Virus record (IMG/VR): IMGVR_UViG_2862178590_000001
Coordinates: 1-64,000 of that record
Length of the DNA: 64,000 nucleotides
Origin: a virus
Taxonomy: Duplodnaviria > Caudoviricetes
Strand: one strand, 5' to 3'
Shown: positions 10,779 to 60,102 of the stretch, in pieces
Numbering within the stretch: position 1 is the stretch's first letter
Layout of the letters: every line of letters starts with the position of its first letter
Program-made: the position numbers and the translations under genes
The notes under the pieces: model-generated
Told to the model about the DNA's origin: nothing
Seen by the model: only the letters and a program-made list of their open reading frames with translations
The model's database searches: none

Positions 10779-10792
10779 CGGGTCGCCGCTCG

Positions 10793-12587: not shown

Positions 12588-12646
12588 TTTGCAGTTGTCG
12601 GCCCGGCCGCGAGGCGACCGGAACGAGGATTCAACTGGACACGGGA

Positions 12647-12787: not shown

Positions 12788-12815
12788 ACCCGTATCCAGT
12801 TGTCTCCCCGAAGGG

Positions 12816-23900: not shown

Positions 23901-24102
23901 AATCACCAGCCATCTTGACGCTGACAACTGCGACGCCGACGCCGACCGCGGCAGTCTCGGCACCAACTTTCGACATGGCCGCCGAGACGCCGCCCATCTT
24001 GGCGGTGAACGACTCGCCCTCGGTCGCGGCCGTGCGCATACCCGAGGCGAACGGCGCGGTTTCTGCCCGCAGAATCACGAACAGGTCGGCGACCTCGGTC
24101 AC
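20965..24102 (-). CDS. Tail tape measure protein (TP901-like)
   Basis: Ala/Gly-rich, 1045 aa, SPSRVF motif, Trp-periodic repeats. Confidence 0.92.
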   Translation of the reverse strand: MTEVADLFVILRAETAPFASGMRTAATEGESFTAKMGGVSAAMSKVGAETAAVGVGVAVVSVKMAGDFQASMQKLVTTAGESQANLGKVSQGVKDIAVQTGTSTKSLADGMYMVESAGFHGADGLKVLSAAAQGARAEQAPLAEVSNAVTSALKSYHLPASAAVQITNQMVAAVGHGKMTFSEFSSSLSTVLPIASSAHLGFDQVGGAIATLTNHGTSAREATQELAFSIRSLQAPNNVAVQEMQRLGLSSVDVSTHLGQRGLTGTIQMLQQAVLQHMGPAGTVLLNAFNTSKQAAADATAMISQMPPSLQKLAQSYASGSLSVTEWKKQIKALPVDQANLANQFATLENKSKGFNTQLKSGGPAEQTYNDAMKKMMGGATGLNTALMLGGENMGDFKNNVAAVGKAGQGAGKNIEGWDKTQKTFNVQMGQLKERVEVAGITIGTKLIPIVSSVIGFFTKHKTITEGLAVAIGVVLTGAVVKFIAGALSPLVKAVSGISTVIGKIPWSGITSGAGSAFDTLRLKGMYAWDGIKSGASGMRTAAVSALDTVRLKGMYAWDGVKSGAQTAGKAVADFGSKAATATKAAGEAAWSGTVKGVKAVGGAMKTAALASLEYAKSTATAVAASVRAAVAWTAEKVALIATSIAEKAAALAQWLLNAAMDANPVTLIVIAIAALVAVLIYAYNHSKTFREIVQAAFRAVATVAMWLWHNVFEPVFHGIATAVGWVVDFIKAHWPLLLAILTGPIGIAVLLITKYWRQISDAFSTAYHAVIDTVVSLVTWIAGLPGKILSALASLGKQLWTWATEAWNRAKSAAVTVATAYVTWVIELPGKILNALSSLGSSLWNWATSAFSQAWHAAINVVLTLMNWANGIPGRVLSALGSLGSLLWSAGSDLIWGLIHGVESAASTLFSYISNIGSSVSGAFKSVLSIFSPSRVFMSHGVNIVAGLVQGLQQGAPAAVGASRDLATATTRGFGNPQLALAGGTSGSALALAGSGGGTVVNNNYVTISPQGSILAERDLRDVMQRQMLQLGARNSQTWQPYHR

Positions 24103-34256: not shown

Positions 34257-34454
34257 TCACCATCCCTCCTGCTCGATGGGGGCGAGGAATTCGTCGGGGC
34301 CCGGCAGGCCGTGGCAGGCCATGTAGTCGGCGAGTTCCTCCATAGAAAGGAACGGGCCCGCGAGATGGCCCGCGTTGTGGGCGTACCAGCGGACGTGGAA
34401 GCCGCCGAGCCGGTCGGCATCCAGCTCATTGGCGTGTCCTCGCAGCGCGGTCAC
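34257..34454 (-). CDS. Hypothetical protein
   Basis: GTG overlaps the portal stop. Confidence 0.5.
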   Translation of the reverse strand: MTALRGHANELDADRLGGFHVRWYAHNAGHLAGPFLSMEELADYMACHGLPGPDEFLAPIEQEGW

Positions 34455-37470: not shown

Positions 37471-37975
37471 CTTCTGAATCTTGAGCTTCAATAGCGGCGA
37501 GCTGTTCCCGGGCTTCGATGAGGGCGTGGTCGAGGGCATCGACGGTGAACACCCCCTCGATCCTGGTGGCGGCGTCAAGACCTCGCAGCTTTGCCACCCG
37601 GTCGCCGATCTTCACAAGCCGGTCCATGGCCGCCAGCTTCGGCCCCGGATCGAGCAGTGGCTGACCCGTCTCAGGGTCCTCGACGAGCCTCCCGCCAGGC
37701 GTGATCACGTAGTGCCGGGCGCGCATCACCACGTGAGCTTCTTCGGCGAGGTGCTCCAGCTCGGCGAGCTGTTCTTCGCGGTACACCTCGACACCGATGC
37801 GGAGTCCGGCGATGTTCTCTTCCAGCGTCCGGTAGAAATCCTTGGACGCGGCGTTGGCGTTGGCGTACCCAAGTTCCTCGTAGATCTGCGAATACGGGAC
37901 TTTACGGCGCCGGTACTCGACGAGCTTGGCGCGCCGGTCGGCGGTCGCGGCGCGTTCAGCGCGGGGACGTGGCAT
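37442..37975 (-). CDS. Terminase small subunit-like protein
   Basis: N-terminal HTH (YSQIYEELGY), KLRGLDA; overlaps the TerL start. Confidence 0.75.
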   Translation of the reverse strand: MPRPRAERAATADRRAKLVEYRRRKVPYSQIYEELGYANANAASKDFYRTLEENIAGLRIGVEVYREEQLAELEHLAEEAHVVMRARHYVITPGGRLVEDPETGQPLLDPGPKLAAMDRLVKIGDRVAKLRGLDAATRIEGVFTVDALDHALIEAREQLAAIEAQDSEDGGAESPPG

Positions 37976-44630: not shown

Positions 44631-45350
44631 TCAGCGCGTGCAGTGGCAGCCGGGTTTGACGTGGATCCAGCCCCACGACGCCTGGTAGCAGCTGTCGGAC
44701 ACGGCGGGCCGGTCCGCACGGCCGGGATAGCAGGAGGGCCGTGTGATCGAGTCGGCGGCGGACTCCAGGAGATTGGCCACTGGGTGCCCGGCCGGCATCG
44801 TGTCGACGGTCCGTCGGAGACTTTCTTTCAGGGCTTCAGCGACTGCCGCATAGTTGCGGAGGTCGGCGTCGTGGATGTCCCCGGTCACGTCCTCGGTCCA
44901 TCCCCAGGCTTCGGCGAGCAGGCGCACCGTGTCGCAGGGGTAGGGCAGCGGTTGATGGAAGGCGCAGCCCAGTTCGTTCGTCTCCTCGCCCTCCTTGGCG
45001 CAGGTCGTGCAGTCGTGACAGCCGTCGTCTGCATGGAGTTCGAGGAGCTTTCGGTCGGCGGCGATCCGGCGCAGTACGGCGTTGGGGTCGGCGTGCGTTG
45101 CGATCAGGCGCATGTTGGCCAGCGTCCGGCCGGACTTCCCGCGATACTCCTGGCCGCGCACGTAGGCGACGACCTCGCCGAACAGATCGCCATGCTCGCC
45201 GTCGTGCTCGGTGTACACCTCGTCGTCCCCCGGATCCGCGGCCTTCGGCGCCCACGGTCCGGGCGTCGCCGCTTCCGCGTCACGCTGTGCCGCGTCCATG
45301 GCGTCCCGCAGCCACGCCAGCATGCGATCCGTGGCCGTCACCGGTGCCAC
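44631..45350 (-). CDS. DUF6221-like protein with C-terminal extension
   Basis: TPGPW, AVLRRIAADRKLL, YPCDTVRLLAEAWG. Confidence 0.7.
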   Translation of the reverse strand: MAPVTATDRMLAWLRDAMDAAQRDAEAATPGPWAPKAADPGDDEVYTEHDGEHGDLFGEVVAYVRGQEYRGKSGRTLANMRLIATHADPNAVLRRIAADRKLLELHADDGCHDCTTCAKEGEETNELGCAFHQPLPYPCDTVRLLAEAWGWTEDVTGDIHDADLRNYAAVAEALKESLRRTVDTMPAGHPVANLLESAADSITRPSCYPGRADRPAVSDSCYQASWGWIHVKPGCHCTR

Positions 45351-46281: not shown

Positions 46282-46500
46282 ATGACCGACTGGGAGAAGC
46301 AGCTCAACCGCCGCGCCACTACCATCGACAAGGCCGAGCTGGCGCGCGACAACGACATCGCCGCCGCACGCCTCGACGGCCACAGCTTCCGCGAGCTCGG
46401 CAAGTGGACTCGCATCAACCACGAAAGCGCCCGCAAAATCTGCCTCAGGATCAACGGGCACACCCAGACCCGGAAAGAACGCGAGGCGGGCTCCAAGTGA
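46282..46500 (+). CDS. Small HTH protein
   Basis: GHSFRELGKWTRINHESARKI. Confidence 0.7.
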   Translation: MTDWEKQLNRRATTIDKAELARDNDIAAARLDGHSFRELGKWTRINHESARKICLRINGHTQTRKEREAGSK

Positions 46501-46931
46501 CCGACGACCTGGTGCAGTTCATCCGCGACCGGCTCGACGAGCGCGTGGCACGGCTGCGTGCGCTACCCGCCGGTCCGTGGGAATGGCGCAGGTTCGATGA
46601 AGTCACGGAACCTGAGTGGCGGGATTGCCTGGTGGGGCAAGACGGCAGCCCGCTGCTGTCCTCGGAGGACGTCGAGGGCTACCAGTCATGGATCAGGCGT
46701 CACGAAGCCTTCGACGGCTACCTCCAGGACATCCAGCCAGAATGCGTCCTCGCCGACATCCAAGCCAAGCGGTCGATCGTCGCTGCCTACGAAGAGGCTG
46801 TGGCCTGGTACGACGCCCCCGAGAATCGGCACCACCTGGCAGGCGAAGTGACGGGCCTGTACAGCGCGGTGCGCCTCCTCGCCCTGCCGTTCGCCACCCA
46901 CCCGGACTACCGGGAGGAATGGCGGCCCTGA
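46497..46931 (+). CDS. DUF6221-like protein
   Basis: DDLVQFIRDRLDE...LLALPFATHPDYREEWRP. Confidence 0.8.
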   Translation: MTDDLVQFIRDRLDERVARLRALPAGPWEWRRFDEVTEPEWRDCLVGQDGSPLLSSEDVEGYQSWIRRHEAFDGYLQDIQPECVLADIQAKRSIVAAYEEAVAWYDAPENRHHLAGEVTGLYSAVRLLALPFATHPDYREEWRP

Positions 46932-47022
46932 GCCGTCCTCCGATCGGGCGGCCTGCCGCACTTCAGGCTCCGCCCGGCTGGTTCGGCTCTACGCTGAGCG
47001 CCCACTGCATTGAGGGGGCCCT

Positions 47023-47388
47023 GTGCGTCGTATCGTCCTGCCTGTCGCCGCGATCCTGCTGACCGCTGCCTGCTCCAGTAGCGGGGGCGACTCGACGCCG
47101 CCGTCCAAGCCTGCCGGTTCGCACGCCTTCGATGCGGCGGGCGACACGCAGTGCAGCATCACCTACCAGGATCGTGGCGATTCCATGTCGTGGACGGTGA
47201 CGACGACGGTCGCCGGGGAGCTGGTCACCCACGCGACCGGGGACCAGACGTACCGGCACGACGACCAGATCGGCGCCGGCCACCGGACGTACACGGCGCC
47301 CGTGCCGCTCTCCCAGGTCCACGACATTGGCGGCGTTCTCCACATCAGCGGCACACAGTACGGGTGCTCTATCGGCCCGCAGAAATAG
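47023..47388 (+). CDS. Lipoprotein
   Basis: Lipobox LTAA-C. Confidence 0.75.
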   Translation: MRRIVLPVAAILLTAACSSSGGDSTPPSKPAGSHAFDAAGDTQCSITYQDRGDSMSWTVTTTVAGELVTHATGDQTYRHDDQIGAGHRTYTAPVPLSQVHDIGGVLHISGTQYGCSIGPQK

Positions 47389-48929: not shown

Positions 48930-49469
48930 TCACTGCTGGTTGTTGGTCTTGGCCCAGACGCCGATGGTCTTGCTCTGGCGCTGGTCCTGGTGGACGTGGG
49001 CGTCGCCGTTGAAGTGGTTGTGGACCTCGGCGGGAGCCGCCTCGCCGGCCTCCGTGGCGCCGCGGATCAGCCGGGCGATGGCGAGGATCGGCACGGCGAC
49101 CGCGGCGGGCGCTGCGCAAATCCAGGCGACCACCGTCGGGTTGGCCTGCCCGGAGGCGAGCAGTGTGCCGATCAAAATCAGGCCGGGCGGGACGGTCGCA
49201 ACTCCGCAGAACAGGGCGGTGCGGCCGATGTCCGTCGAGCGCTGCGACATGGGCGGAATCCCTGGTTGCGGCACCGGCAGGGCGGTGCCGATTTGGGGGC
49301 CGTCCGTCCACGACGGGACGGTCGGGTCAGCGGTGCGGTACGACGTCTGCAAGCCCTCGGCGAGAGCGGCCTCGACGGCTGCGGCGGTGAGGCGGGCGAG
49401 GTCACGGTCGGCGGGGGTGGGGTGCCGCTGCCCGGCTGTGGGGCGCGGCTCGGGCAGCGGCATGTTCAT
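48930..49469 (-). CDS. Spd-like two-TM membrane protein
   Basis: Pro-rich N-terminus, two TMs, VHNHFNG; downstream of traB. Confidence 0.6.
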   Translation of the reverse strand: MNMPLPEPRPTAGQRHPTPADRDLARLTAAAVEAALAEGLQTSYRTADPTVPSWTDGPQIGTALPVPQPGIPPMSQRSTDIGRTALFCGVATVPPGLILIGTLLASGQANPTVVAWICAAPAAVAVPILAIARLIRGATEAGEAAPAEVHNHFNGDAHVHQDQRQSKTIGVWAKTNNQQ

Positions 49470-50056
49470 CAGGGACCGACCTTGCTCGGCACTTTGGCCG
49501 TCGTGGGCGTGCTGGGGGTGGTGTTCTTCGGCGTGGTGTCGGCGACTTGGGCGTACCAGGCGCCGCCGACGGTCTTCCCGCTGTGTTTCTGGCGTTCGTG
49601 GGTACGCAGCGCGGCGGTTGCGGCTTTGGCATCGCGGTAGCGGGGCTTCTCCTTCTTCCCGCAGGGGCAGGCCCAGCCGACGAGGCCGGAGTGCTTGTCG
49701 GGCCCGAAGCGGGCGGCCATCGCGACGCGCATCCGTCCGGCCTTGGCCTTGGTCGGTTTGGCGGGGCAGGGCTTGGAGCCGGTGAACGAGCCGTCCTTGC
49801 CCTTGGTGAAGATCTGCCCGTTGCCCTTGCAGCGCGGGCATCCCTCGTGGGTCATGCGGAGGATTGCGGCGTCCTTGCGGGAGTTGACGGCCTGGAGGTG
49901 CTTTTCGCCGTGCTTGGCGACGAAGAACGCGAGCCAGGTAGCAGCCCGCCGTCCGAGCGGGCCGCCGCGGGGCCGGCGCGTGCTGCGGGCGCGGGACACC
50001 GGCTTGCGGCGGCGTGGTGCGGTCCGTTTACGGGGGGCCGGCTTCCTCGTGGCCAT
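49469..50056 (-). CDS. Basic Zn-finger protein
   Basis: CPRCKGNG, CPC...HERQKH; Arg-rich N-terminus. Confidence 0.65.
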   Translation of the reverse strand: MATRKPAPRKRTAPRRRKPVSRARSTRRPRGGPLGRRAATWLAFFVAKHGEKHLQAVNSRKDAAILRMTHEGCPRCKGNGQIFTKGKDGSFTGSKPCPAKPTKAKAGRMRVAMAARFGPDKHSGLVGWACPCGKKEKPRYRDAKAATAALRTHERQKHSGKTVGGAWYAQVADTTPKNTTPSTPTTAKVPSKVGP

Positions 50057-50100
50057 GATCGGCAACTCCCTTTCTAGAACTTCACATATATGGATCAATA

Positions 50101-50250
50101 GGGCGTCCAGAGGGCGTCCCGACCCCGTCCACGCCCCGTCCAGAGGGCGTCCCACCTGCGGACCTGGACAGCAACTGGACAGCCCCAGGGCGGGCCTGGG
50201 ACGGACCTGGGACGGGAGCAGGACGGGGGTCAGGACGGGGCAATCAGGAC
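50101..50250. repeat. Two opposed arrays of 8-bp repeats with 11-bp period (clt-like)
   Basis: GGGCGTCC/CCCCGTCC at 50101, 50112, 50123, 50134, 50145; GGAC cores at 50166, 50177, (GGGC 50188), 50199, 50210, 50221, 50233, 50247. Confidence 0.85.
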
Positions 50251-52287
50251 AGAGGCCGCCTGCTCGACGATCTCCCGATCCCAGCCGCGGACCCGCCGGT
50301 CCCCGGCGTAGTCCCGCCGCGAAACGGCGTTGGCCACGAGACTGTCGAGCAGGCCCTGCAACTCGCCGCCGTCGGCTGCAACACCGAACTCGACGATCAC
50401 TGCGGTCGGGAGCCAGTCGGCTCCCTTGTCATCGAAGAGCTTGAGCAGCTGATGGAGGGTGATCGCGTCTTCCTTCATCGTTTCCCGCGCGAACTCGGCG
50501 AGCTGCTCGGTGAGCGACCGTCGCTGGCTGCCCGCCGTCAGGCCCTCGCCGGCTTCGAGGAGCGTGTCGGCGTCCAGCCGGTTGGCGCCCGCCTTAATTC
50601 GGGCGGGTACCGCTTCGAGGATCTGGTCGCGGGTGAAACCGTTGAAGCGGTGCCGGATGGCCCGGTTGAAGCCGCCGCCCATGATGAACGACTGCCCGGC
50701 ATCATTGACGATCTCTCCGACGGCGGGTTCGAGCCGGTCCGGCCGCCAGCCGACGGCGCCCTTGCCGGGGCCGAACAGGAGGCGGATGTCCTCGAAGCGG
50801 CAGGCCATGCCAATGCGGAACGGCACGATGCCGGCGATGGCGTCGCCGAGGGCATCCTCAGTGGCTTCCTGCCCGGCAAAGATCAGGTAGATGCCGTACT
50901 GCCGTCCCGTGCGCAGGAGCTGGATGGCTCGCTCCTTGCCGCGCGGTGACAGCTGGAGGAACTCGTCAATGAAGATGTACAGGTGAGGGTGCTTGGCGCT
51001 GGCCTTCCACCGGTCACCCATCTTCAGACGGGCCATGACCTTGGACCGTGCGGTAACGAACTTCAGAGCCCGCTCCAGCGCCTCCTCGCAGGCCTTGGGG
51101 TCACGAGCCCGCAACTCCATGAGGTCGCCGAATTCGTCGAGGCCGCCCTTGAGGGGATCAAGGTCCCAGCACACGGCGTCGATGCAGGCGGTGAGGGCCT
51201 CAGCGACGGTACGCAGGGCGCCCAGAGTCTTGCCTGCACCCATGGCGCCGATGATGAGGGCGCAGAACCCGTCGAGGGTGAGCTCGAACGTCGAGCCGTC
51301 CATAGCCCGCCCCATGACGATGTTGTCGTGGACGGACAGCGAGTGGGGGGCATGGATGCTCGGGCGTGCCATGTCGGCGAACGGGTCAGATTGGACGAGC
51401 CGCATCGTGAGGTGGGCGGCGCGCTGGGGGTCGGTCTCGAACATGGTGCCGCCCTGCGGGATGTCGAAGAGGGCGTCGAGGTCATCGAGGACAGCGCTGA
51501 CCGCTGCGGGTTTGCTGGCGTTGAGGACGACGTCGAGTTCCCAGCCCCAGCCGCGGTATCCGAGAACCTGCACGCTGCGTGTGCCAATGCCCTTGTGGGC
51601 GAGCGCGCGGGAGACGCACTCTTCGACCTGGCCCGGCGACTGGCACATGGCGAGCGGGAACGGCTCGTCGGAGTCGGGGTTGTCGGGGTCGGCGATGATC
51701 TGCTCGGGCGCGATGCTGGGGCTGTTGAGCCGGTAGCGGCCGTACAGGGTGAGCAGCGTTCCGGCGACCAGGCCGGTGAACGCGGGGGTGACGGTCCACG
51801 ACCAGTCGAGGGCGGTCAGGCCGCCGAACTTGACGAGCGCCCACCAGCCGGCCAGATTCAGCGCGGCTGTGGCGCCGGCGGTCCAGCCGAGCGTCCACCA
51901 GCGCTTGCGGCGGACGATTTCGACCTTGTTCCAGTGCCCGGAGTTCGACATGCCGCCGAGGACTTCCTGGAGATCGTGGGCGCGGGCGTAGCGGTAGCCG
52001 AGGACGCAGGACGACTTCAGCCCGTGACCGAACCAGCCGGCCGCCATCCACGTGCCGCGGGCGGACAGGCCGAGCATCCGGCCCGTCACCGAGGCGACGA
52101 CCATGGCCGCCCCGCCAGCCTGATACAGGACCGGGCGACGGTACGGACGGACCTCGATCACACCCGGGGCAATGTCGTCCTCAGGCTCGTCGGCATCCGC
52201 GGGTGCGGCGTCTACAACCTCGCCGGGGATCACCTTCGTCAGGTCCCAGTCGGCGGGGAGCTGCGGGCGGGCTTCGGTCGTCATCAC
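50230..52287 (-). CDS. traB: TraB-like FtsK/SpoIIIE DNA translocase
   Basis: N-terminal TMs, Walker A GAMGAGKT, Walker B YIFIDEF, RQYGIYLIFAGQ, C-terminal wHTH-like domain. Confidence 0.85.
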   Translation of the reverse strand: MMTTEARPQLPADWDLTKVIPGEVVDAAPADADEPEDDIAPGVIEVRPYRRPVLYQAGGAAMVVASVTGRMLGLSARGTWMAAGWFGHGLKSSCVLGYRYARAHDLQEVLGGMSNSGHWNKVEIVRRKRWWTLGWTAGATAALNLAGWWALVKFGGLTALDWSWTVTPAFTGLVAGTLLTLYGRYRLNSPSIAPEQIIADPDNPDSDEPFPLAMCQSPGQVEECVSRALAHKGIGTRSVQVLGYRGWGWELDVVLNASKPAAVSAVLDDLDALFDIPQGGTMFETDPQRAAHLTMRLVQSDPFADMARPSIHAPHSLSVHDNIVMGRAMDGSTFELTLDGFCALIIGAMGAGKTLGALRTVAEALTACIDAVCWDLDPLKGGLDEFGDLMELRARDPKACEEALERALKFVTARSKVMARLKMGDRWKASAKHPHLYIFIDEFLQLSPRGKERAIQLLRTGRQYGIYLIFAGQEATEDALGDAIAGIVPFRIGMACRFEDIRLLFGPGKGAVGWRPDRLEPAVGEIVNDAGQSFIMGGGFNRAIRHRFNGFTRDQILEAVPARIKAGANRLDADTLLEAGEGLTAGSQRRSLTEQLAEFARETMKEDAITLHQLLKLFDDKGADWLPTAVIVEFGVAADGGELQGLLDSLVANAVSRRDYAGDRRVRGWDREIVEQAASVLIAPS

Positions 52288-53612
52288 TGGTCCTTCTGGC
52301 GGCTGTCGGCGGCTGCGTGGCGGGCGGTGATGGAGGCCTGCTTACGGGCGGCCTTCACGTACCTGGGGGTGTCGCCGCGGCTGCGTACACCGCGCACTTT
52401 CGGCCCCGTCCTGGGAGTGGGGGGCATTTGTGCAGCACGCTGCGTGTTCTTGACCTTGGCGGCGGTGTTCACGGTGGTGTTCTGGCGGGCCGCTTCGACC
52501 CGGGTTTCGGCGGCGTTGCGGGCCCGGATCACCTCGGCGGATTCGCCCGGGTCGGTGCCCTCGATGTCGCGGTGCGCGCGCCGCCAGACAGTCTCGGTGA
52601 CGGTCGTCTCCCCGACCGCCGCGGCGAGCTTCAGGGCGTGCTCCCACACCTTCGGGAACTGCCGGGCGCGGGATTCGGCCAGCTGCTCTATGGCTTCGGC
52701 TGCGGCCTTGTCGGCGGCTTCCTTCTCGGCCTGGCTCCGCGCCTCCTCGGCAGCCTTGCGGACGGCCTCGGCGCGCTCAGTCTTCCGCTGCTCCCGCCGC
52801 TGCTTGCGGGTCGGGATGCCGTCGCGCTTCCGGATCCGGCCGTGCTCGTGGAGATCCCATACGCCGGGTCCGGCGATCGACGCGAACGCGGTTCCGATCG
52901 CGGTGGCCGGGTCGAACGCGTTGAGGCCGTGCCACAGGTTGATGCCGGCCGCGATGAACGCGAACAGCCAGGCGATCAGCCGGTAGTGCCAGCACGCCCG
53001 GCGGGCGGCAGAAGCTGCAGCCGCACCCTTCTGGACGACCCAGGCGGCGCCTTCGAGCATGAGGGGGGCGGCCATCAGCCAGACGGCGTGCGGGTTGTAG
53101 AACGCGGCGATCTGCACGGGCAGGGCGACGATGGCGCACACGATGTAGAAGCCGCGGGCGTATCCGCGCCACTGCGACTCGGCCGCCTCGGACTCCATCG
53201 CGTCTTTGGCGTCGGCGGCCTCCTGTTCGGCGGCCTGCCGGGCTGCATCTTGGCGAGCCCGGTCGGCGTCCTCGCGGCGCCGGTTGTGGTCGGCGATCCG
53301 CGCGTCCGAGGCGGCTTCCTCCTCGCGGGCCTTGCGTTCGGCCCGGTCGTTGGCCAGCCGCAGCTTGCGGGCCTCCTCCTCCGCCCTGACGATCTCTGCC
53401 TGGGCGGCGGCTTCGGCGGCGATACGAATGGCTTCGGCGTCGGCCCACGCCTGGGCGCGGATCGCTTCGGCCTGGGCCTGTGCCACGACGTCCGGCAGGG
53501 GGGCCGTGTCGGGCTCGTCGGCAGGTTTCGGGTCGGTGGTGACGGCCCGCCAGTCCCCGAGTACGGGCATGGCCGGCCGCTGGTGGCCGTTCAGAGGCGG
53601 GCTGACAGTCAT
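52284..53612 (-). CDS. DUF2637 / Spd-like membrane and coiled-coil protein
   Basis: Long E/A/R coiled coil, 4 TMs (APLMLEG, AAGINLWHG, GPGVWD), basic tail; overlaps the traB start. Confidence 0.75.
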   Translation of the reverse strand: MTVSPPLNGHQRPAMPVLGDWRAVTTDPKPADEPDTAPLPDVVAQAQAEAIRAQAWADAEAIRIAAEAAAQAEIVRAEEEARKLRLANDRAERKAREEEAASDARIADHNRRREDADRARQDAARQAAEQEAADAKDAMESEAAESQWRGYARGFYIVCAIVALPVQIAAFYNPHAVWLMAAPLMLEGAAWVVQKGAAAASAARRACWHYRLIAWLFAFIAAGINLWHGLNAFDPATAIGTAFASIAGPGVWDLHEHGRIRKRDGIPTRKQRREQRKTERAEAVRKAAEEARSQAEKEAADKAAAEAIEQLAESRARQFPKVWEHALKLAAAVGETTVTETVWRRAHRDIEGTDPGESAEVIRARNAAETRVEAARQNTTVNTAAKVKNTQRAAQMPPTPRTGPKVRGVRSRGDTPRYVKAARKQASITARHAAADSRQKDQ

Positions 53613-53633
53613 GGCGCGCGGTGTCCTTCCGGT

Positions 53634-53864
53634 TCAGTGGTGGGTGTGGCGGCGTGCGGTGTGGCGGGCGTTGCTGCGGGTCAGGACCGTGCGGGTGATC
53701 ACGAACGCGGAGATTGCGGCGGCGACGGCGAGGAGCCCGTTCGCGCCGAGGTGGGCTGCGCCGTGTCCGGCCAGGTAGCCGGTGGTGCAGGCGGTGATGA
53801 ACGTCAGCAGGTCGACGACGCTGGACGTCCGGCGTGTGGCGGGCTGCCGGGCTGGCCGGTTCAA
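53634..53864 (-). CDS. Small membrane protein
   Basis: Two TMs. Confidence 0.55.
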   Translation of the reverse strand: MNRPARQPATRRTSSVVDLLTFITACTTGYLAGHGAAHLGANGLLAVAAAISAFVITRTVLTRSNARHTARRHTHH

Positions 53865-53938
53865 CTGACGCCCCGGTACGCGGCGAAGGCGAGAGCGGCG
53901 AACGAAGCGAAGATCGCGAAGGCGGAGAACAGACGCAT
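53861..53938 (-). CDS. 25-aa TM peptide MRLFSAFAIFASFAALAFAAYRGVS
   Basis: RBS TAAGGA; hydrophobic; stop overlaps the downstream gene. Confidence 0.5.
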   Translation of the reverse strand: MRLFSAFAIFASFAALAFAAYRGVS

Positions 53939-53970
53939 GACTTGGTCCTTACGGGCTGGGTGCGGGATGG

Positions 53971-54156
53971 TCAGTAGTGGTCGAGGTCGTTCGCGGCGCG
54001 GCGGGTCTTGGCGGCCCAGTCCTCGCAGACCTCGGCCTTCTCCGTCTCGCCCTTGGCACGGAACTCCTGGGCTTGGCGTTCGGCGTCGGCGGCGGCGTCG
54101 CGCTTGCCCTGCGGCGTGTCAAACGGGTCGGACGACTTGCGGCTGAACAGGCCCAT
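53971..54156 (-). CDS. Hypothetical protein
   Basis: RBS GGGAG; MGLFSRK. Confidence 0.6.
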   Translation of the reverse strand: MGLFSRKSSDPFDTPQGKRDAAADAERQAQEFRAKGETEKAEVCEDWAAKTRRAANDLDHY

Positions 54157-54172
54157 GGCGGGCTCCCTCGGG

Positions 54173-54478
54173 TCAGGTGGTTTCGGTGGCCGGGCGGTCC
54201 CAGCCCTTGCGGAACTCGTTCATGAACTCGGCGGTGACCTGCGCCCCGACGACCGCGCCGAGCGGCGGCAGCCCGGTGCGTTCGGCGGCCCAGAACTCGA
54301 TGCGCATCACCACCTCGGCGAGGTAGATGACGGCCGGCCGGGTGCAGCGGACCGCGAACGTGACCGCGCCGATCAGGACCATCACGCTCATCGCGGCGAG
54401 GCGCACCGTCCACGCCCACCCGGCGGCGAGCAGTCGCTGCCATGCCGCAGGCTTCGCGGTGATCACATAGGCGTGCAC
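54173..54478 (-). CDS. Membrane protein
   Basis: RBS GGGAGG; hydrophobic core. Confidence 0.6.
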   Translation of the reverse strand: MHAYVITAKPAAWQRLLAAGWAWTVRLAAMSVMVLIGAVTFAVRCTRPAVIYLAEVVMRIEFWAAERTGLPPLGAVVGAQVTAEFMNEFRKGWDRPATETT

Positions 54479-54572
54479 GGTGAACCTCCCTCAGATCAGG
54501 CGTGCGGGTTGCGATGGAAACGCTGTCCTGGCCCCTCGCCGCCGGTACGGGGACCGGCAGTGAGGGCAGCCG

Positions 54573-54746
54573 TCAGCGGCCGTTGATCTCGGTGACTCGG
54601 GCGTGCTCGCCCCATCCGTCTCGGAGACGGACGACCGTGAAGTAGTTGCCGCCGACGTCCGTGATGCGGTGCGGCTCGCCCTTGTACTCGACGTCCGTGC
54701 CGACCTGGTCGACGTTCGGGTGCTTCGGGTTGGTGATCCGGTGCAT
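54573..54746 (-). CDS. Small SH3-like protein
   Basis: GTDVEYKGEPHRITDV; RBS GAAGGGA. Confidence 0.55.
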   Translation of the reverse strand: MHRITNPKHPNVDQVGTDVEYKGEPHRITDVGGNYFTVVRLRDGWGEHARVTEINGR

Positions 54747-54833
54747 GCGGTTCCCTTCTCGGTTCGGGCCGGACTGTCCGGCCGCCGCACCCCACACCCG
54801 GACGACGGTGTGGAGCACAGCGGGCGGACAGCG

Positions 54834-54923
54834 TCAGCGGGGGTCGGCGGCGAGCACGTAGACGGTGAAGGCGACCATGGCGACGATCCACAACATCGAC
54901 GCGGCGATCAGGACGTAGACCAC
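54834..54923 (-). CDS. 29-aa TM peptide
   Basis: MVYVLIAASMLWIVAMVAFTVYVLAADPR. Confidence 0.45.
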   Translation of the reverse strand: MVYVLIAASMLWIVAMVAFTVYVLAADPR

Positions 54924-54926
54924 GGG

Positions 54927-55250
54927 TCACACCACCCCACCGTCGCCGGTCTTGACGAGCACCCCGGACGGGGACCGCCGGTAGACGCGGGCTGCGTTGG
55001 CGCGGAGCTTCGCCTCGACCGCCTCGCCCAGGTCGATGCCCGTCATCTCGGCGAGCCCGACGAGGTACAGCTGCACGTCGGCCAGCTCCGCACCGAAGCC
55101 GGGCAGGCCCTGGCGCCATGCCGTGAACGCTTCGCCGACCTCGGCGGTCAGCAGACCGAACTCCAGCGGCACGTCCGTGACGTTGAAGCCCTTCGCGAGC
55201 TTGTTGTCCCAGGCCGCAGCCTGGATCTCCGGCAGCGTCAGCGCCATCAC
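54927..55250 (-). CDS. MazG-like nucleotide pyrophosphohydrolase
   Basis: LLTAEVGEAF...GAELADV..YL..LA...GIDL. Confidence 0.85.
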   Translation of the reverse strand: MMALTLPEIQAAAWDNKLAKGFNVTDVPLEFGLLTAEVGEAFTAWRQGLPGFGAELADVQLYLVGLAEMTGIDLGEAVEAKLRANAARVYRRSPSGVLVKTGDGGVV

Positions 55251-55399
55251 GCCTCACCCCCGTCGTCGGCCAGGTCGTGACTGCCGGGCTCGCACTCGTC
55301 GACCCAGCAGCGATGGACAGGGCAGACGTCCGGGTCCGGAGTGAACAGCCCGTGCCACGAGCCTTCCGGCCTCGTCGGCGCCAGGGTCGCGGCGGTCAC
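55247..55399 (-). CDS. Small Cys/His protein
   Basis: CPVHRCWVDEC; overlapping start/stop. Confidence 0.5.
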   Translation of the reverse strand: MTAATLAPTRPEGSWHGLFTPDPDVCPVHRCWVDECEPGSHDLADDGGEA

Positions 55400-55599
55400 G
55401 ACTCGTCCCCGGGCTCGACGTCGGCGAGGACGTCTCCTCCGAAGAGGTGCAGCAGGCCGTCGGCCAAAACCTCCAGGCGGCCGTTCATCTTCGCCACCGC
55501 GCTGGCGTCGCCCGTGGGTTGCGCCTTGGACTCGGCCACAACTCCAGCCGCCCACAGGAGACATCGACGCTCGGCGTCCGTCAGATCGGGGCGGCTCAT
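55396..55599 (-). CDS. Hypothetical protein
   Basis: ATGA overlaps. Confidence 0.55.
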   Translation of the reverse strand: MSRPDLTDAERRCLLWAAGVVAESKAQPTGDASAVAKMNGRLEVLADGLLHLFGGDVLADVEPGDES

Positions 55600-55862
55600 G
55601 ACCTCTCACCGCCGCCGCGGAGGAGGGCCTCCGCCTCAGCCACGAGCTCGCCAGCGTCCACGGCGTGCGCCTCGGCACCCGCCTCCGCCGCCAACCGCAG
55701 CCGCTCCACATCCGCCTCAGTCAGGCGGACCGTGCCGACCAGATCCCCACCCGGAGTGAGGACGATCAGACGGACCGCCGTCCCCGTGTCGGGGCTCATC
55801 CCGCCCAGCGCCAACTGCAACTCGATCGCCCGCAGCGCATCGTGTCCCAGCCCGGCCATCAC
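55596..55862 (-). CDS. Hypothetical protein
   Basis: Overlapping start/stop in operon. Confidence 0.55.
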   Translation of the reverse strand: MMAGLGHDALRAIELQLALGGMSPDTGTAVRLIVLTPGGDLVGTVRLTEADVERLRLAAEAGAEAHAVDAGELVAEAEALLRGGGERS

Positions 55863-55996
55863 GCCTCCTCCTCACCGGAGGACGCCCGAAGCTGCGCGTC
55901 GAACAGCTCGGCCTCGACATCGACACAGTCACCGGACAAGATCCGCTGATAGACCTGCTCGCTCTCGGCGGACATACGGTCCTGGAAGTCAGCCAT
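55859..55996 (-). CDS. Small acidic protein
   Basis: MADFQDRMSAESEQVYQRIL; TGATG overlap. Confidence 0.5.
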   Translation of the reverse strand: MADFQDRMSAESEQVYQRILSGDCVDVEAELFDAQLRASSGEEEA

Positions 55997-56304
55997 CACG
56001 CCACCTCGCTGTACTGCGCGCCGAACAGCTCGATCGCGTGCAGCTCGTCATACAGCGACGGCTCAACGGGGTGCGCCTTGTCGTAGCGGGAGGCCTCGTT
56101 GAGAAGCTGGATCTCAACGTCCCAGTCGCCGCGAGCCAGGGCGTACAACTCGATCAGCCGGGCACGGTAGGCGGAGTCATCGGCGTCGAGCTCGGCCTTC
56201 GTCGGGGCCGGGGTGCCGAGGACGCGGCGCAGAGGCTCGCGGGATGCGGCGGTGGAGAGGGGGGTGTACTGGTGATCGCTACCCGGGCGGAGAGTGATAG
56301 TCAT
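55996..56304 (-). CDS. Hypothetical protein
   Basis: RBS GAAGAAGGA; ATGA overlap. Confidence 0.6.
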   Translation of the reverse strand: MTITLRPGSDHQYTPLSTAASREPLRRVLGTPAPTKAELDADDSAYRARLIELYALARGDWDVEIQLLNEASRYDKAHPVEPSLYDELHAIELFGAQYSEVA

Positions 56305-56993
56305 GACCGGTCCTTCTTCCTTGCTTCGTAGCGGCTTTGAGCAGCGGCTCGGCAAGCACGGCAGTGCTTGTAGCCCTTCGGGTCTACGTAGGTGTTGAGG
56401 AGGTCGAGGGCGTGCCCCTTCGCGCAGGACTCGGCGCCGCGGTGGCGCCTTGGCGCGGTGGGCGCATCCAGGTCGATCGGTGCTTGCTGAAGAGGAGCAC
56501 CAGTCGCAGCGGCGTACCGCTCGCGCCCCAGCGTTATGGCGCAAGTGCGGCAGCTACGGCCGCCATCAGGCGTCACCTGGACGTTGCTGCCGGACAGCGG
56601 GTGTCCGCGCTTGCAGTGGGTCTTGTTCGCATTGATCGCAGCCGGAGCGATCGGGGAGCGCATGATGTTCTCGCGGCAGGTGACGGGCTCCAGGTGCTCC
56701 GGGTTGCAGCACGGCGGGTTACGGCAGAGGTGATCTGTGTGTAGCCCCTGCTCGATCGGGCCCGTCGTGATCATGTACATCAGGCGGTGCGAATAGACCA
56801 CCGTCCCCGCGAGCCTGTATCGCCCGTATCCCGTCGGGAATCGGCGACCGTTCCAGATCCAGCAACCGCTCGCGTCGAGCGAAACGAGCGACCACACGTG
56901 GTCGAACTGCTCCTGGGTCAGCTGCACTTCACGGCCGTCCGGGAGTCGCATGGGCTTCAGCGTCTTGAAGTTGGGCTTCGTCGGGGTGTTCAT
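56301..56993 (-). CDS. HNH endonuclease with duplicated C-terminal Zn module
   Basis: CWIWNG, SHRLMY, DHLCRNPPCCNPEHL; C-x-x-GH...C-x2-C twice. Confidence 0.9.
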   Translation of the reverse strand: MNTPTKPNFKTLKPMRLPDGREVQLTQEQFDHVWSLVSLDASGCWIWNGRRFPTGYGRYRLAGTVVYSHRLMYMITTGPIEQGLHTDHLCRNPPCCNPEHLEPVTCRENIMRSPIAPAAINANKTHCKRGHPLSGSNVQVTPDGGRSCRTCAITLGRERYAAATGAPLQQAPIDLDAPTAPRRHRGAESCAKGHALDLLNTYVDPKGYKHCRACRAAAQSRYEARKKDRS

Positions 56994-57220
56994 CAGGCCA
57001 CTTCACCCGCAGCAACCCGCGACTTGTGCAGGTACTCGACGACGGCGGACTCCGGGATGCGCAGTCCGCGCCGTCGCACCGACCCACCGCCGATGCGGTG
57101 GGCGCGCAGGTCCCCGTTGTCGATGAGTCTGTAGATCGTGGATACGTGAACGGTGAGGCGCCGCGCCAGTTGACCGGCAGTGTGGAACTGCTCTGCCTGC
57201 GGCGGTACTTCTTCGCACAT
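56993..57220 (-). CDS. Excisionase / Cro-like HTH_17 protein
   Basis: TAGQLARRLTVHVSTIYRLIDNGDLRAHRIG..LRIP; RBS GGAG before ATG 57220. Confidence 0.85.
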   Translation of the reverse strand: MCEEVPPQAEQFHTAGQLARRLTVHVSTIYRLIDNGDLRAHRIGGGSVRRRGLRIPESAVVEYLHKSRVAAGEVA

Positions 57221-57260
57221 GCGGGCTCCATCGGAAAGTGGGACCCGGTGGGTCGCCAAG

Positions 57261-57304
57261 TTCTACGTAGAAGCCAGTGAAGCCATGTTCTACGTAGAAG
57301 TCAA
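57261..57304 (-). promoter_or_regulatory. Leftward early promoter with two TTCTACGTAGAA operators
   Basis: Palindromes at 57261-57272 and 57288-57299; -35 TTGACT, 17 bp, -10 TTCACT. Confidence 0.8.
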
Positions 57305-57320
57305 GCTCTCCCGAGGAACC

Positions 57321-57349
57321 AAAAAAGCCCCCACCGAAAGGTGGGGGCT
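57321..57349 (-). terminator. Intrinsic terminator after gntR
   Basis: AGCCCCCACC-UUUC-GGUGGGGGCU-UUUUU. Confidence 0.85.
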
Positions 57350-57363
57350 GCGGGCCGGAACTC

Positions 57364-58122
57364 CTAGGACTTGAAGGCGTATTCAAGGATGTACTTGGCC
57401 GAGCTGAGGGTCATCTCATTGGTCTCAACGACCCGCCCCTCAGCGTCCATCGCATAGCGAGCGATGATCACAACAGGGGTTCCCGGGCCCAGCGCCAAGT
57501 CCTCAGCCTCTTGCGGCCGTGGCATCCGAACCCGAATCTCCTCTCGGAAGTCGACCGGCCCGTGCCCAACATCCGCAAGCCGCCCATAGATGCCGCCAGC
57601 TCCCGTATCCAACTCGGCGATGGGCGTCCCGGAGGCGAGGTCGGCCGGGATGTAAGAGACCGCCCTCATGACCGGCTCTCCGTCAACGCAGTAGCGCCGC
57701 GAGCGGCGCCAAGCCGTTGCACCCTCCTCAAGATCGAGGGCCGCAGCAACGAGGGCGGGCGGCTGGACCTCGTCAACCGAGAGGTCTTCAACGGTGCGCG
57801 GCCGATCCGGGGCGTCGATGTCCCACATCGAGACCCCGTCGCCCCAGACCTCGACCGAGAGCCGCTTCGTCGCATTGCGACGAATGGGCATGAAGTCACG
57901 CACCACGGTGCCGACACCTTGTCTTGCTTCGGTCAGGCCTTCATTGGCGAGTTCGGCCAGCACCTTACGGGCCGTGTCGGCGGACACCTCCCAGCGCTTG
58001 GCGATCTCAGGCTCGCTCGGAACCTGATCACCGGGAGCGAGTGCGTGGCTGTAAATCTTCTCGCGCAGTTCACCAGCGATGACCACGTGCTTGGCAGGCT
58101 TCCGCGGTGCCCGATCTGCCAC
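57364..58122 (-). CDS. GntR/HutC (wHTH + UTRA) repressor, KorSA-like
   Basis: PSEPEIAKRWEVSADTARKVL...GVGTVV, UTRA C-terminus; start GTG 58122. Confidence 0.92.
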   Translation of the reverse strand: MADRAPRKPAKHVVIAGELREKIYSHALAPGDQVPSEPEIAKRWEVSADTARKVLAELANEGLTEARQGVGTVVRDFMPIRRNATKRLSVEVWGDGVSMWDIDAPDRPRTVEDLSVDEVQPPALVAAALDLEEGATAWRRSRRYCVDGEPVMRAVSYIPADLASGTPIAELDTGAGGIYGRLADVGHGPVDFREEIRVRMPRPQEAEDLALGPGTPVVIIARYAMDAEGRVVETNEMTLSSAKYILEYAFKS

Positions 58123-58140
58123 TTTCCCTCCTCGATCAAC

Positions 58141-58235
58141 TTCTACGTAGATCAGGCTAGTGCCCGCATGCGAATACAGCGAACATGGCGACTCTTGCAA
58201 GACTCCTTGACTTCTACGTAGAACCTCGGGAGCCT
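58141..58235. promoter_or_regulatory. Two further operators and a rightward promoter
   Basis: TTCTACGTAGAT (58141), TTCTACGTAGAA (58212); -35 TTGACT (58207). Confidence 0.75.
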
Positions 58236-58280
58236 GAGTGTGCACCGCTCGCTGAGTAAGCAGGGTGCATGTACAGCGAC

Positions 58281-58371: not shown

Positions 58372-58827
58372 ATGAGCGTAGCAAGCGAGCACGCAAGCCC
58401 CCAGCCTGTCTCCACCCCGACGTCCCCCGCCTCGCGACTGGTCCCTGCTCTGGTCCACGGCCAGCGGATCTTTGTTGAATGTCCGTCGTGGTGCATCGTC
58501 GATCACGTCAAGCTGCACACCGGCGCGGTCGAGGACATCACGCACTGGTCGGAGGGGGCGGGCATGCAGGTGTTGACGATGCTCGATCCTCGGGCGGCGC
58601 ATTCGGACCTGTTCGCCCGGGTCAATTCTGATCCTGCGCACGGCGATCCACGGATGCGGGCTGCGCATGTTCTGGTGGGCAACGAGTCGGCGGTGGACGC
58701 GTTCCTGACGCCGGACATGGCGGACGAGCTGGCGGCCGATCTGGTCGCGTTCGCTGCGGCGGTTCGTCGTGCGGCTCGGACGGCGCGGCGGGCGAACGAG
58801 GCCAGCGGCGTGGAGGTGCCAGCATGA
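58372..58827 (+). CDS. DUF6907-like protein
   Basis: CPSWCIVDH...ITH; LTPDMADELAADL. Confidence 0.75.
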   Translation: MSVASEHASPQPVSTPTSPASRLVPALVHGQRIFVECPSWCIVDHVKLHTGAVEDITHWSEGAGMQVLTMLDPRAAHSDLFARVNSDPAHGDPRMRAAHVLVGNESAVDAFLTPDMADELAADLVAFAAAVRRAARTARRANEASGVEVPA

Positions 58828-58994
58828 GCCAGCTGGTGATCGAGTCGTTCCCTGCGGGTGGTCCGCGTGGCTCCTGGCCTGCGGAGGAGTTCGCGCGTGA
58901 TCGCCGCAAAGAGGGCGTCAAGGCCGAGGTCGTGATGGACATGGACGCCGATGCGTTCCTCGTCATCGTGCCGCAGCGGCGGGACGCTGGCTGA
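58824..58994 (+). CDS. Hypothetical protein
   Basis: ATGA overlap; RBS GGAGG. Confidence 0.55.
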   Translation: MSQLVIESFPAGGPRGSWPAEEFARDRRKEGVKAEVVMDMDADAFLVIVPQRRDAG

Positions 58995-59083
58995 CGGCCC
59001 TGTCTCGTCCCCGGCCTGTCGTGGCTGGGGGTGTACGGCGGTGCGGGGTCGGCTCGTGCCGGGCTTCAAAAGCGGAGGTGGAC

Positions 59084-59164
59084 ATGCTCAGCAATTGTGA
59101 TCACGAGTGGGTGCCGTGGAGTGGTCAGCCGCGGTGTCGTAAGTGTGGTGCGACGCAGGGCTGA
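59084..59164 (+). CDS. 26-aa peptide MLSNCDHEWVPWSGQPRCRKCGATQG
   Basis: GGAGG 5 nt upstream; C-x-H and C-x2-C. Confidence 0.5.
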   Translation: MLSNCDHEWVPWSGQPRCRKCGATQG

Positions 59165-59249
59165 TTGCTCTGGGTGAAGGGTGCGGGGTTGCTTGTGCGG
59201 TCCCGCACTGCTGTTGGAGCCTGTGGTCAGGATTGCCGGAAGGGGTGTC

Positions 59250-60044
59250 ATGAACTCTCGTACCGACTGGGCCGACCTGCCTGCGCCTGTCCGGGCCCAG
59301 GCGGTGGCTGAGGTGGGCCCGGTCGTGGACTGGGAGCCGGTTGGCAGCGGCCTGAACTGCAGGCTCGCCGTCCACCTCTACACGGAAGACGGGTCCTGCC
59401 GGTTCGTGAAGGGCGTGCCGGAGGATGATGCGCACGGCGTGGCAGGGCAGGGCCGGGAGGTGGCCGTTTCTCGGGTTGCGGCTGGCGTCGTCGCGCCGGT
59501 GCTGTGGTCCCGGTTGTGCGGCGGCTGGGATCTGCTGGTGTTCCAGTGTGTGGGCGACCAGCATGTTGATCTGACGGCCGGGTCGCGGGACGTGGATCTG
59601 GTCGCCGAGACGCTGCACCGTGCGCAGGGGCTGAAGGCAACGGGCCTGGCGGTGCCGCGTCTCGCTGAGCGTTTCGAGGGGTTCCTCGACGAGGACGGGC
59701 TGCGGCTGCTCGACGGGGAGGCGTTGCTGCACACGGACACGAACCCGCACAACATGATCCCGTACCTGTCGCAGGTCTATCTGGTCGACTGGGCGATGGC
59801 CGCGTCGGGCCCGGCCTGGGTGGATGTGGCGTACACGGCGGTGCGGCTGATGGAGGCCGGCTGGCCCGCGGCCGGCGCGCTGGAGTGGGCTGCCGGGTTC
59901 CGGTCGTGGCGGGAGGCGGATCCGCGGGCGGTGGCGGCCTTCGTGTCGGCGTCGTGCCGTCAGTGGGAGGCGATGGTCGGGCCGGTGGACTGCCGGCCGT
60001 CGAACCGCCGCTTCGAGGCCCTGTTGACCGCGGTCCACGCCTAG
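59250..60044 (+). CDS. APH-like phosphotransferase
   Basis: FVKG, HTDTNPHN catalytic loop, VDW; start reset to 59250. Confidence 0.85.
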   Translation: MNSRTDWADLPAPVRAQAVAEVGPVVDWEPVGSGLNCRLAVHLYTEDGSCRFVKGVPEDDAHGVAGQGREVAVSRVAAGVVAPVLWSRLCGGWDLLVFQCVGDQHVDLTAGSRDVDLVAETLHRAQGLKATGLAVPRLAERFEGFLDEDGLRLLDGEALLHTDTNPHNMIPYLSQVYLVDWAMAASGPAWVDVAYTAVRLMEAGWPAAGALEWAAGFRSWREADPRAVAAFVSASCRQWEAMVGPVDCRPSNRRFEALLTAVHA

Positions 60045-60102
60045 CCCCGCACAGACGACAGCGCCCCCGACCGTGAGGTCGGGGGCGCTTGTGTTTGCCT
60101 GG

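Follow-up and report, generated by a model that had tools for sequence, protein, structure and literature searches.

The 64,000-nucleotide stretch of DNA analysed here (the window; positions 1 to 64,000 of IMG/VR virus record IMGVR_UViG_2862178590_000001) covers most of a temperate Streptomyces siphovirus, 85 kb long, intact and integrated. Between the early genes and the terminase of this prophage lies a module with the layout of a plasmid-type transfer system for double-stranded DNA (dsDNA), comprising a GntR-type regulator, small membrane proteins, a DUF2637-like protein (P0002), a TraB-like FtsK-family ATPase (P0001) and, at the 3' end of the traB-like gene, a repeat array resembling the clt loci of Streptomyces plasmids. 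Our reading, to which we assign a probability of about 0.55, is that a plasmid-type dsDNA transfer module has become fixed in an integrated temperate siphovirus, and that its pump would give the phage a virion-free route besides infection. The anatomy of the module, its homology to plasmid transfer regions, its recurrence in several prophage lineages and the correspondence of repeat motif and TraB C-terminus are directly visible in the sequences compared. The original prediction, that a TraB-clt-GntR set of the kind carried by plasmids and by the integrative and conjugative elements of actinomycetes (AICEs) is part of a complete siphovirus rather than an element in its own right, is in agreement with our data.

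The clt-like array (50095-50250) is built of 7-8-bp units of CCCGTCC/GGACGGG type, arranged head to head and in helical phase around a CCGCAGGT centre. On the plus strand, five units with a CGTCC core are spaced exactly 11 bp apart (50105-50149); these are followed by the CACCTGCGGACC centre, by facing units with a GGAC core on an 11-bp lattice at 50166, 50177, 50199, 50210 and 50221, and by two further GGAC units at 50233 and 50247. The array overlaps the traB stop codon, with its first unit inside the last codons; a conserved promoter-like box and the next gene lie just downstream of it. Five of the 25 copies of CCCGTCC in the window fall within 116 bp. The repeat array predicted for the traB 3' end therefore exists, in the form of phased, facing units across the stop codon. 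Arrays of this architecture, with lineage-specific motifs, occur in nearly all of 57 related loci as well as in plasmid pFP1, and no full-length family member examined is without one at the traB 3' end; the approximately ten units per array are uniform within a lineage and different between lineages, as a sequence-specific loader would select for. A CCGCAGGT-like centre between the facing arrays (50160-50175 in the window) is shared by most prophage lineages and pFP1 despite their differing units. When the unit motif was compared with the C-terminal signature of TraB across 58 loci, xRVRGW was paired with CCGTCC (3 loci), (P)QVRGW or QARGW with CCGTCT (about 17 loci) and YLRGW with GACCCGG (11 loci), the last of which presumably resembles the TraB motif of pSVH1. 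A second, unrelated C-terminal class ending NPRGY/FKLEALT was paired with TGCTCG or TGCTCA (TGCTCR; about 26 loci), and its members lose similarity to P0001 at residue 580, which is the end of the motor domain. Across these loci, the repeat unit follows the predicted winged-helix class of the TraB C-terminus. The array in the window is built like the experimentally defined clt of pWTY27, which comprises 16 bp inside traA plus 159 bp, contains four 7-bp direct repeats as well as inverted repeats, and is bound by TraA (PMC3583192). Short direct repeats read by the cognate TraB are a feature of clt regions (PMC4447253); in the literature these are 8-bp repeats, and traB and traR are described as kil-kor pairs.

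The gene at whose end this array lies encodes a 685-residue predicted dsDNA translocase (P0001; 50230-52287, minus strand) that matches the 'FtsK/SpoIIIE-like' family phrog_12531 (E 4e-83), placed by PHROGs in the category 'moron, auxiliary metabolic gene and host takeover'. The NCBIfam model plasmid_TraB (NF041214) also matched, at 42.6 bits (E 2.8e-11) and over residues 261-479 only. An AlphaFold (AF2) model of P0001, built on 35 homologues, was most similar in Foldseek searches to the FtsK motor structures 6t8b and 2ius (E 1e-12, TM-score approximately 0.6 on the target), followed by the TcpA coupling protein and EccC. The Walker A residues G347, G350, K353 and T354 and the Walker B residues D441 and E442 are invariant in the 35 sequences, and the N-terminus forms long hydrophobic helices in the model (residues 61-188); a strict Kyte-Doolittle threshold calls none. 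These features support the prediction of a TraB-type FtsK ATPase, whose N-terminal helices are candidate membrane segments. For the winged-helix-like end that had also been predicted there is a candidate: the last 100 residues, modelled with a pLDDT of 90.5, show the helix-helix-strand-helix-helix-strand-strand order typical of a winged helix, but although the top rows of a Foldseek search with this domain were nearly all winged-helix-type DNA-binding proteins, their scores were weak (E 0.1 or worse; VIA Z at most 6.2). The identity of P0001 to the host FtsK is approximately 17%, which would make a phylogeny rooted with host FtsK unreliable. We note that elsewhere in the genome an open reading frame of 753 residues (G000:C44:313538-313849) has a weak match to FtsK_SpoIIIE (32.9 bits), and may encode the TraB of a separate AICE.

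Read along the minus strand from 58245 to 48930, the module consists of gntR, a terminator, an operator pair, an HNH endonuclease gene, small open reading frames, a MazG-like pyrophosphatase gene, the genes of two small membrane proteins, P0002 and P0001, a 173-bp repeat spacer, and the genes of a zinc-ribbon protein and of a protein with two transmembrane (TM) helices; all are in one orientation, as predicted. P0002 (52284-53612, minus strand; 442 residues) has a coiled-coil N-terminus and a TM core, and is 35-55% identical in relatives. Neither P0001 nor P0002 matched any Pfam family at E 0.01; the Pfam DUF2637 profile (PF10935) itself missed P0002, and scored one homologue at 15.7 bits against a cut-off of 22.8. 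Alignment of a five-sequence profile with the DUF2637 protein of pFP1 by hhalign gave a probability of 98.7% (E 3e-16, 181 columns), and on this evidence P0002 is a divergent relative of DUF2637. The DUF2637-like protein of the original prediction is thus recovered by profile comparison and not by Pfam. Upstream of P0002 lie a 76-residue small membrane protein (53634-53864, minus strand; frame plot and hydropathy) and the fourth conserved gene of the tra core (54173-54478, minus strand), encoding a membrane protein of approximately 77-101 residues with a TM segment by hydropathy and kept in the genomes G158, G310, G209 and G359 and in most related loci. Directly after the repeat array, the zinc-ribbon protein (49469-50056, minus strand; 195 residues, with a basic N-terminus and CxxC/CxC motifs) starts at the ATG at 50056 behind a GGGAG ribosome-binding site, and is 61-75% identical in all five of the full-length genus relatives described below. 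The last gene of the module had been predicted to encode a Spd-like TM protein, and a hydropathy scan does find two TM helices, within residues 84-138 of the 179-residue product (48930-49469, minus strand; phrog_19266, E 6e-39), whose homologues come after the tra core in many related loci. The module also contains the MazG-like pyrophosphatase gene (54927-55250, minus strand; phrog_3301, E 1e-14) and, within the GntR-controlled operon, the HNH endonuclease gene (56301-56993, minus strand; Pfam HNH_3, E 1e-10). The predicted excisionase-like gene could not be substantiated, as no small open reading frame in 53634-55250 matches an excisionase or a helix-turn-helix protein by Pfam, PHROGs, NCBIfam or inspection. 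Searches with the same three databases found no integrase or Rep in 48.9-58.3 kb, no att-like direct repeats flank the module or lie inside it, and megablast of 40000-64000 against phages and plasmids gave no match.

Control of the module was predicted to lie with a KorSA-like GntR-UTRA repressor and four operators, and a GntR-UTRA regulator and four operator palindromes are present. The regulator gene (57364-58245, minus strand; phrog_10724, E 7e-52) encodes a GntR/HutC-type protein with a GntR helix-turn-helix (PF00392, 55 bits, E 5e-15) and a UTRA domain (PF07702, 91 bits, E 6e-26); its true start is probably downstream of 58141. The left operator pair (57261-57299) has two copies of TTCTACGTAGAA, at 57261 and 57288, within a leftward promoter-like unit of CTTGAC plus operator, and the right pair (58141-58223), at the gntR promoter and a rightward promoter, has one copy matching at 11 of 12 positions (58141) and one exact copy (58212). 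These four are the only copies of TTCTACGTAGAA with at most one mismatch in the whole 8.58-Mb genome, all of them beside gntR, and the 19-bp unit of CTTGAC plus operator occurs on both strands, facing outwards. An intrinsic terminator with a 10-bp stem, eight GC pairs and a T run follows directly after gntR (57326-57349, minus strand). Behind the rightward operator-promoter lie a DUF6907 gene and an APH-like kinase gene (58372-60044, plus strand; Pfam), ending in a strong terminator (60060-60089), an arrangement which suggests an accessory pair that is expressed in lysogeny or controlled by GntR. Given operators that are unique in the genome and promoter units that face outwards, one repressor could shut the tra operon, the DUF6907/kinase pair and its own gene. 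The regulator genes of G158 and G310 lie 5 kb upstream of traB, and that of G158 has a like design with another palindrome, GCTCTAGAGC, twice after the gene and once before it; the closest relative, G209, has the tra core and no adjacent GntR homologue. The prophage also encodes, next to its left attachment site, a 394-residue Xre-type phage transcriptional regulator (4468-5652, minus strand; Pfam HTH_31/HTH_3; phrog_5823, E 2.6e-63), a candidate CI-like repressor with homologues in G209, G310, the plasmid-prophage pAmyja1 and a contig of Streptantibioticus silvisoli. From its insulation by a terminator and its two outward-facing local promoters, GntR is best described as a local switch and not the only switch of the phage. 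The proposal that the element is under a Kor-type rather than a CI-type switch is unsupported, because the Xre-type regulator is conserved, GntR is local, and G209 has no adjacent GntR.

That the module sits in an integrated phage is clear from the ends of the element. The window corresponds to G000:C11:590521-654520, within an 893-kb contig; its G+C content is 66-70% and almost every gene is on the minus strand, whereas the host flanks have 73-75% G+C, and the lower-GC island extends from approximately 1500 in the window to approximately 91000 on a scale extended past it. The prophage is a discrete insertion of 85,003 bp, of which approximately 24 kb extend to the right of the window. Its boundaries are formed by a 141-bp direct repeat with 141/141 identity, found by blastn of the flanks, the left copy (attL) at 2693-2833 and the right copy (attR) outside the window at extended 87696-87836; this repeat corresponds to the 3' end of a permease gene of ABC-transporter type (attB). 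A tyrosine integrase gene (extended 86241-87680, plus strand; Pfam Phage_integrase) ends 15 bp before attR. In a public run of another strain (99.7% identical), a 21.6-kb contig matches window positions 1500-2833 with four mismatches and continues with the 30 bases that follow attR in the genome of the window. As this single contig joins both host flanks across one repeat copy, the attachment site is empty in the other strain. Excision cannot be read from the contig depths (host 96/94, prophage 85/82, core unitig 247). Membership of the phage-plasmid class of pZL12 or pAmyja1 type, with Rep and ParAB, was rejected, as the element is integrated, in an 893-kb contig, and only ParB-like domains are present. 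As had been predicted, intact phage genes lie to the left of the module, including those for terminase, portal, capsid, tape measure and endolysin as called by PHROGs profiles.

The module recurs in the same setting elsewhere. Of 399 other genomes of the genus, 28 encode relatives of P0001 with an E-value of 1e-20 or lower. Full-length relatives, with 48-54% identity, occur in five of them, and each of the five retains the core of small TM protein, P0002-like protein, TraB-like protein and zinc-ribbon protein. G209 is syntenic throughout, and its terminase large subunit (TerL), 71% identical, is encoded 13 kb downstream of traB, as in the window. G158 and G310 share the core, the upstream gntR and recombination genes, and G310 also the integrase; the terminase, portal and capsid of both fall into different PHROG families, and across prophages with three unrelated virion modules the core keeps one position. 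A species scan with one genome per species gave 17 loci, three of them in genus genomes already counted, with the full core in 16, often then followed by the 2-TM protein, and terminase within 10 kb in five. In IMG/VR, 39 viral contigs carry a P0001 gene, many of them 80-93 kb long, and the P0001 family comprises more than 120 protein clusters at 49% identity or above, nearly all from Streptomyces and mostly annotated as hypothetical. The base composition of the module equals that of the rest of the prophage. Co-occurrence of traB, clt and gntR with terminase in related prophages, which had been put forward as a check, holds for the core in G209, G158 and G310, but not for an adjacent gntR in G209. 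By its distribution in sequenced genomes, the module is a conserved, integral part of a widespread prophage family. An 81,972-bp contig of S. silvisoli (G400:C66) is syntenic with the phage over its entire length, including the tra core and GntR; it lacks host flanks and a homologue of the window's integrase, its ends do not overlap, and as such it may be a free replicon or the product of an assembly break at the att repeats.

How these parts might work together is suggested by analogy with plasmid systems. Binding of the GntR-UTRA protein to the four operators flanking its own gene would keep shut the leftward promoter into the tra operon. Derepression would then allow the small membrane proteins, the DUF2637-like protein and the TraB-like ATPase to be made; hexamers of TraB in the membrane would use the C-terminal winged helix to recognise the array at their own gene's 3' end, and would drive the phage genome, excised or replicating, as dsDNA through hyphal cross-walls or into a hypha in contact with the first. 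The zinc-ribbon and 2-TM proteins would help in this, like the Spd proteins of plasmids. In our view the most economical function for the locus is that of a pump which is loaded at the array and carries phage dsDNA from one compartment or hypha to another; we infer expression of the module, its DNA binding and transfer on strong comparative grounds. It is possible, though we rate it somewhat below even odds, that the 80-93-kb temperate Streptomyces phages constitute a large, undescribed family that spreads by two routes, as virions and through a plasmid-derived TraB-clt pump taking the genome of the phage from one hyphal compartment or mycelium to another, and in which the winged-helix/repeat 'address code' of each lineage prevents cross-mobilisation among co-resident phages and plasmids.

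Several observations weigh against a transfer function. P0001 is far from characterised TraB proteins, with 42.6 bits in NF041214 against a cut-off of 800, and it is missed by Pfam FtsK_SpoIIIE (PF01580) in a six-frame genome search that finds host FtsK; as such, the placement by hidden Markov model that the original prediction called for succeeds in PHROGs but fails for plasmid_TraB and Pfam. The weak fold searches with the C-terminal domain indicate a fold class only, and no specific relative such as FtsK gamma. The array adjoins the coding region of this domain, so that the co-variation of motif and C-terminus could partly reflect linkage and not recognition. The tra operon is part of the main leftward run to the late genes, and may be expressed only in cells near lysis. 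Finally, the nearest phage-borne relatives are those of phages of Peebs/NootNoot type, of which Peebs, the one examined, has no array after its gene, and the ATPase may therefore have a phage-specific role.

An alternative reading is that the pump serves the phage life cycle only, carrying DNA across septa to other compartments or prespores for intramycelial spread or spore entrapment, without true conjugation, where it would enlarge the burst or secure vertical carriage. FtsK/SpoIIIE proteins do pump DNA across septa, the Peebs/NootNoot-type phages in which relatives occur are large (120-135 kb), and in all related prophages the module lies just upstream of the packaging genes; homologues of the plasmid spread protein SpdB2 in phages have also been suggested to spread phage DNA (PMC4447253). 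However, GntR, the DUF2637-like protein and the array with its CCGCAGGT centre are closer to pFP1 than to the large phages, which have no DUF2637-like gene. We consider a purely phage-internal role unlikely, noting that plasmid TraB carries out both primary transfer and spreading, so that the two roles are hard to separate. It is less likely still that no phage DNA is moved at all, and that the locus encodes a function in host takeover or exclusion, or a toxic 'kil' function under GntR control, directed for example at host FtsK, sporulation septation or incoming plasmids, with the repeats as regulatory sites or a terminator. The listing of FtsK-like genes with WhiB and Lsr2 as development-related mimics of the host (PMC13587820; bioRxiv 10.1101/2024.02.16.580700), the PHROGs category of host takeover, the toxicity of unregulated traB (PMC4447253) and the position of the array just upstream of the promoter-like box are all consistent with this. 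A terminator or a single operator, however, needs no such array, and approximately ten phased, facing units that are kept in nearly every lineage, and whose sequence tracks the TraB C-terminus, are the signature of a cognate loading site. Chance insertion into the prophage of an independent AICE or plasmid remnant is very improbable. The gene content does resemble the transfer and control block of an AICE, and the nearest non-phage homologues are plasmid-borne; but an AICE, taken here as an element of 9-24 kb with its own integrase and att sites and a replication initiator, would differ from what is found. The module has no integrase, Rep or att repeats of its own, the only integrase/att pair bounds the whole 85-kb phage, base composition does not set the module apart, and the core keeps its position in G209, G158 and G310 with their different virion modules, as well as occurring in 13 further genomes and in the 39 viral contigs. 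Possession of its own att ends or integrase, which would have marked the module as independent of the surrounding siphovirus, was looked for and not found. We therefore continue to favour a plasmid-type transfer module that is fixed in the phage and offers it a virion-free route.

If this is correct, these elements would be conjugative phages, the spread of phage in a multicellular bacterium would be partly receptor-independent, host range would extend beyond receptors alone, and DNA could be mobilised between strains without lysis. In mycelial bacteria an infection or a lysogen meets a compartmented, multicellular host, and the locus ties a clade of phage FtsK-like genes, until now listed as host mimics, to the plasmid TraB-clt machinery. 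It offers a cis site that can be recognised and a sequence code open to testing in vitro, together with an experimental set of about 60 loci, several motif classes, and a prophage whose att site is empty in a close strain.

The remaining genes are those of a siphovirus. The terminase large subunit (35965-37578, minus strand; phrog_979, E 7e-38) is 70-71% identical to the TerL proteins of pAmyja1 and G209, and the portal protein (34451-35968, minus strand; phrog_12, E 1e-40) is 49% identical to that of pAmyja1; among the isolated phages searched, no portal exceeded 25% identity. These are followed by the major head protein (29170-30417, minus strand; phrog_752, E 4e-25), the tail tape measure protein (20965-24102, minus strand; phrog_2723, E 2e-61), a 953-residue protein in minor-tail position (18090-20951) that belongs to a PHROG family without assigned function, and the endolysin (15806-16735, minus strand; phrog_291, E 1e-31), from which the lysis cassette runs on to 15142. 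A head-tail adaptor and a peptidase were also among the PHROGs matches, and the lengths of the virion and lysis genes are comparable to those of the G209 and pAmyja1 homologues. The left arm has, besides the Xre-type regulator, a PLD-like protein, an HNH endonuclease and, at 7479-12796, the genes for Ku, a small serine resolvase and an RNA-binding protein of Ro/TROVE type, together with a tRNA-Ser whose anticodon, ACT, is unusual; the large FtsK-bearing phage Peebs likewise has Ro-like proteins. Of the two HNH_3 endonuclease genes, the one outside the GntR-controlled operon (14056-14472, plus strand) lies where the left-arm genes give way to the lysis cassette. In the interval from the tra module to the terminase, two DUF6221 paralogues are in opposite orientation (44631-45323, minus strand; 46497-46931, plus strand), and 46282-47388 forms a small plus-strand island. 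The right arm encodes ParB-like proteins, a PD-(D/E)XK nuclease, an exonuclease and a methylase. The host region outside attL (window 1-2138, L007:11275-11991) has an RNA-repair pair, a polynucleotide kinase-phosphatase and a T4 Rnl1-type RNA ligase, as well as an 'Oxygenase-NA' gene of DNA-repair type.

Among known systems, tblastn found relatives of P0001 in 89 large (120-135 kb) Streptomyces phages, at 33-37% identity and annotated as 'FtsK-like DNA translocase', and in 49 actinomycete plasmids at approximately 31-36%. In the phages Peebs, NootNoot and Coruscant the protein is of the same family (phrog_12531), with a similarity that spans residues 160-670 and takes in the C-terminal domain; around the FtsK-like gene of Peebs the annotation shows no GntR gene within 7 kb, and P0002 has no match in 50,697 phage records. 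We take phages of the Peebs/NootNoot type to be lytic and without a conjugative life style. The closest known virion module is that of pAmyja1 (NZ_CP008954), with which the prophage shares TerL (70%), tail tube (57%), portal (49%), capsid (47%) and the Xre-type regulator; pAmyja1 differs in being a 92.5-kb circular plasmid-prophage of Amycolatopsis japonica without the TraB core. We note that pAmyja1 (NZ_CP008954.1) has been typed as non-mobilizable, and that with its full siphovirus virion module and GntR and Xre regulators it is likely to be an unrecognised phage-plasmid.

In the plasmids pSVH1, pIJ101 and pWTY27 and in AICEs such as pSAM2, a single FtsK-like membrane ATPase reads clt repeats through a C-terminal winged helix, clt adjoins or overlaps its own traB gene, and GntR-type Kor/TraR regulators and small Spd membrane proteins accompany it (PMC4447253, PMC3583192). 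The module in the window has this design, and differs in its marginal sequence similarity (42.6 bits), in residing in an 85-kb phage in contrast to plasmids and AICEs of 9-40 kb, and in having neither Rep nor integrase of its own. By gene order and similarity, its closest non-phage relative is the transfer region of pFP1 (NC_006912), where GntR, small genes, a DUF2637 protein, an unannotated TraB-like gene (approximately 34% identity to P0001, E 4e-57), 6-7-bp CTCTAC/GTAGAG repeats, direct and inverted, arrayed about a CCGCAGGT centre, and a basic protein follow in the same order. The differences are that pFP1, a circular plasmid of 39 kb, has Rep/Par functions and lacks virion genes, that CTCTAC is its repeat unit, and that identities are approximately 30-34%. 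The nearest functional parallel is pZL12, or phage ZL12 (GQ919031), a circular element of 90,435 bp with siphovirus genes, in which an analogous block of GntR, a membrane protein, an FtsK-like tra gene and a small gene lies directly upstream of the virion genes. Homology to pZL12 was considered and rejected: no prophage protein, P0001 included, matched the FtsK-like gene of pZL12 in tblastn at E 1e-4, and the two elements have only a few lysis and small genes in common. They differ also in that pZL12 is an autonomous circular plasmid with ParAB, whereas the element in the window is integrated and has a tyrosine integrase. pZL12 is reported to combine a phage cycle with a tra locus in one element (PMC3583192, PMC4487206), and its transfer to require the tra gene plus two neighbours (PMC3583192). 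As such it is a precedent for a phage that also conjugates; with this precedent, and with FtsK-like genes already annotated in phages, our finding is not categorically new, and the idea itself is not unprecedented. What the prophage family described here adds is to extend the single precedent of pZL12 to integrated prophages.

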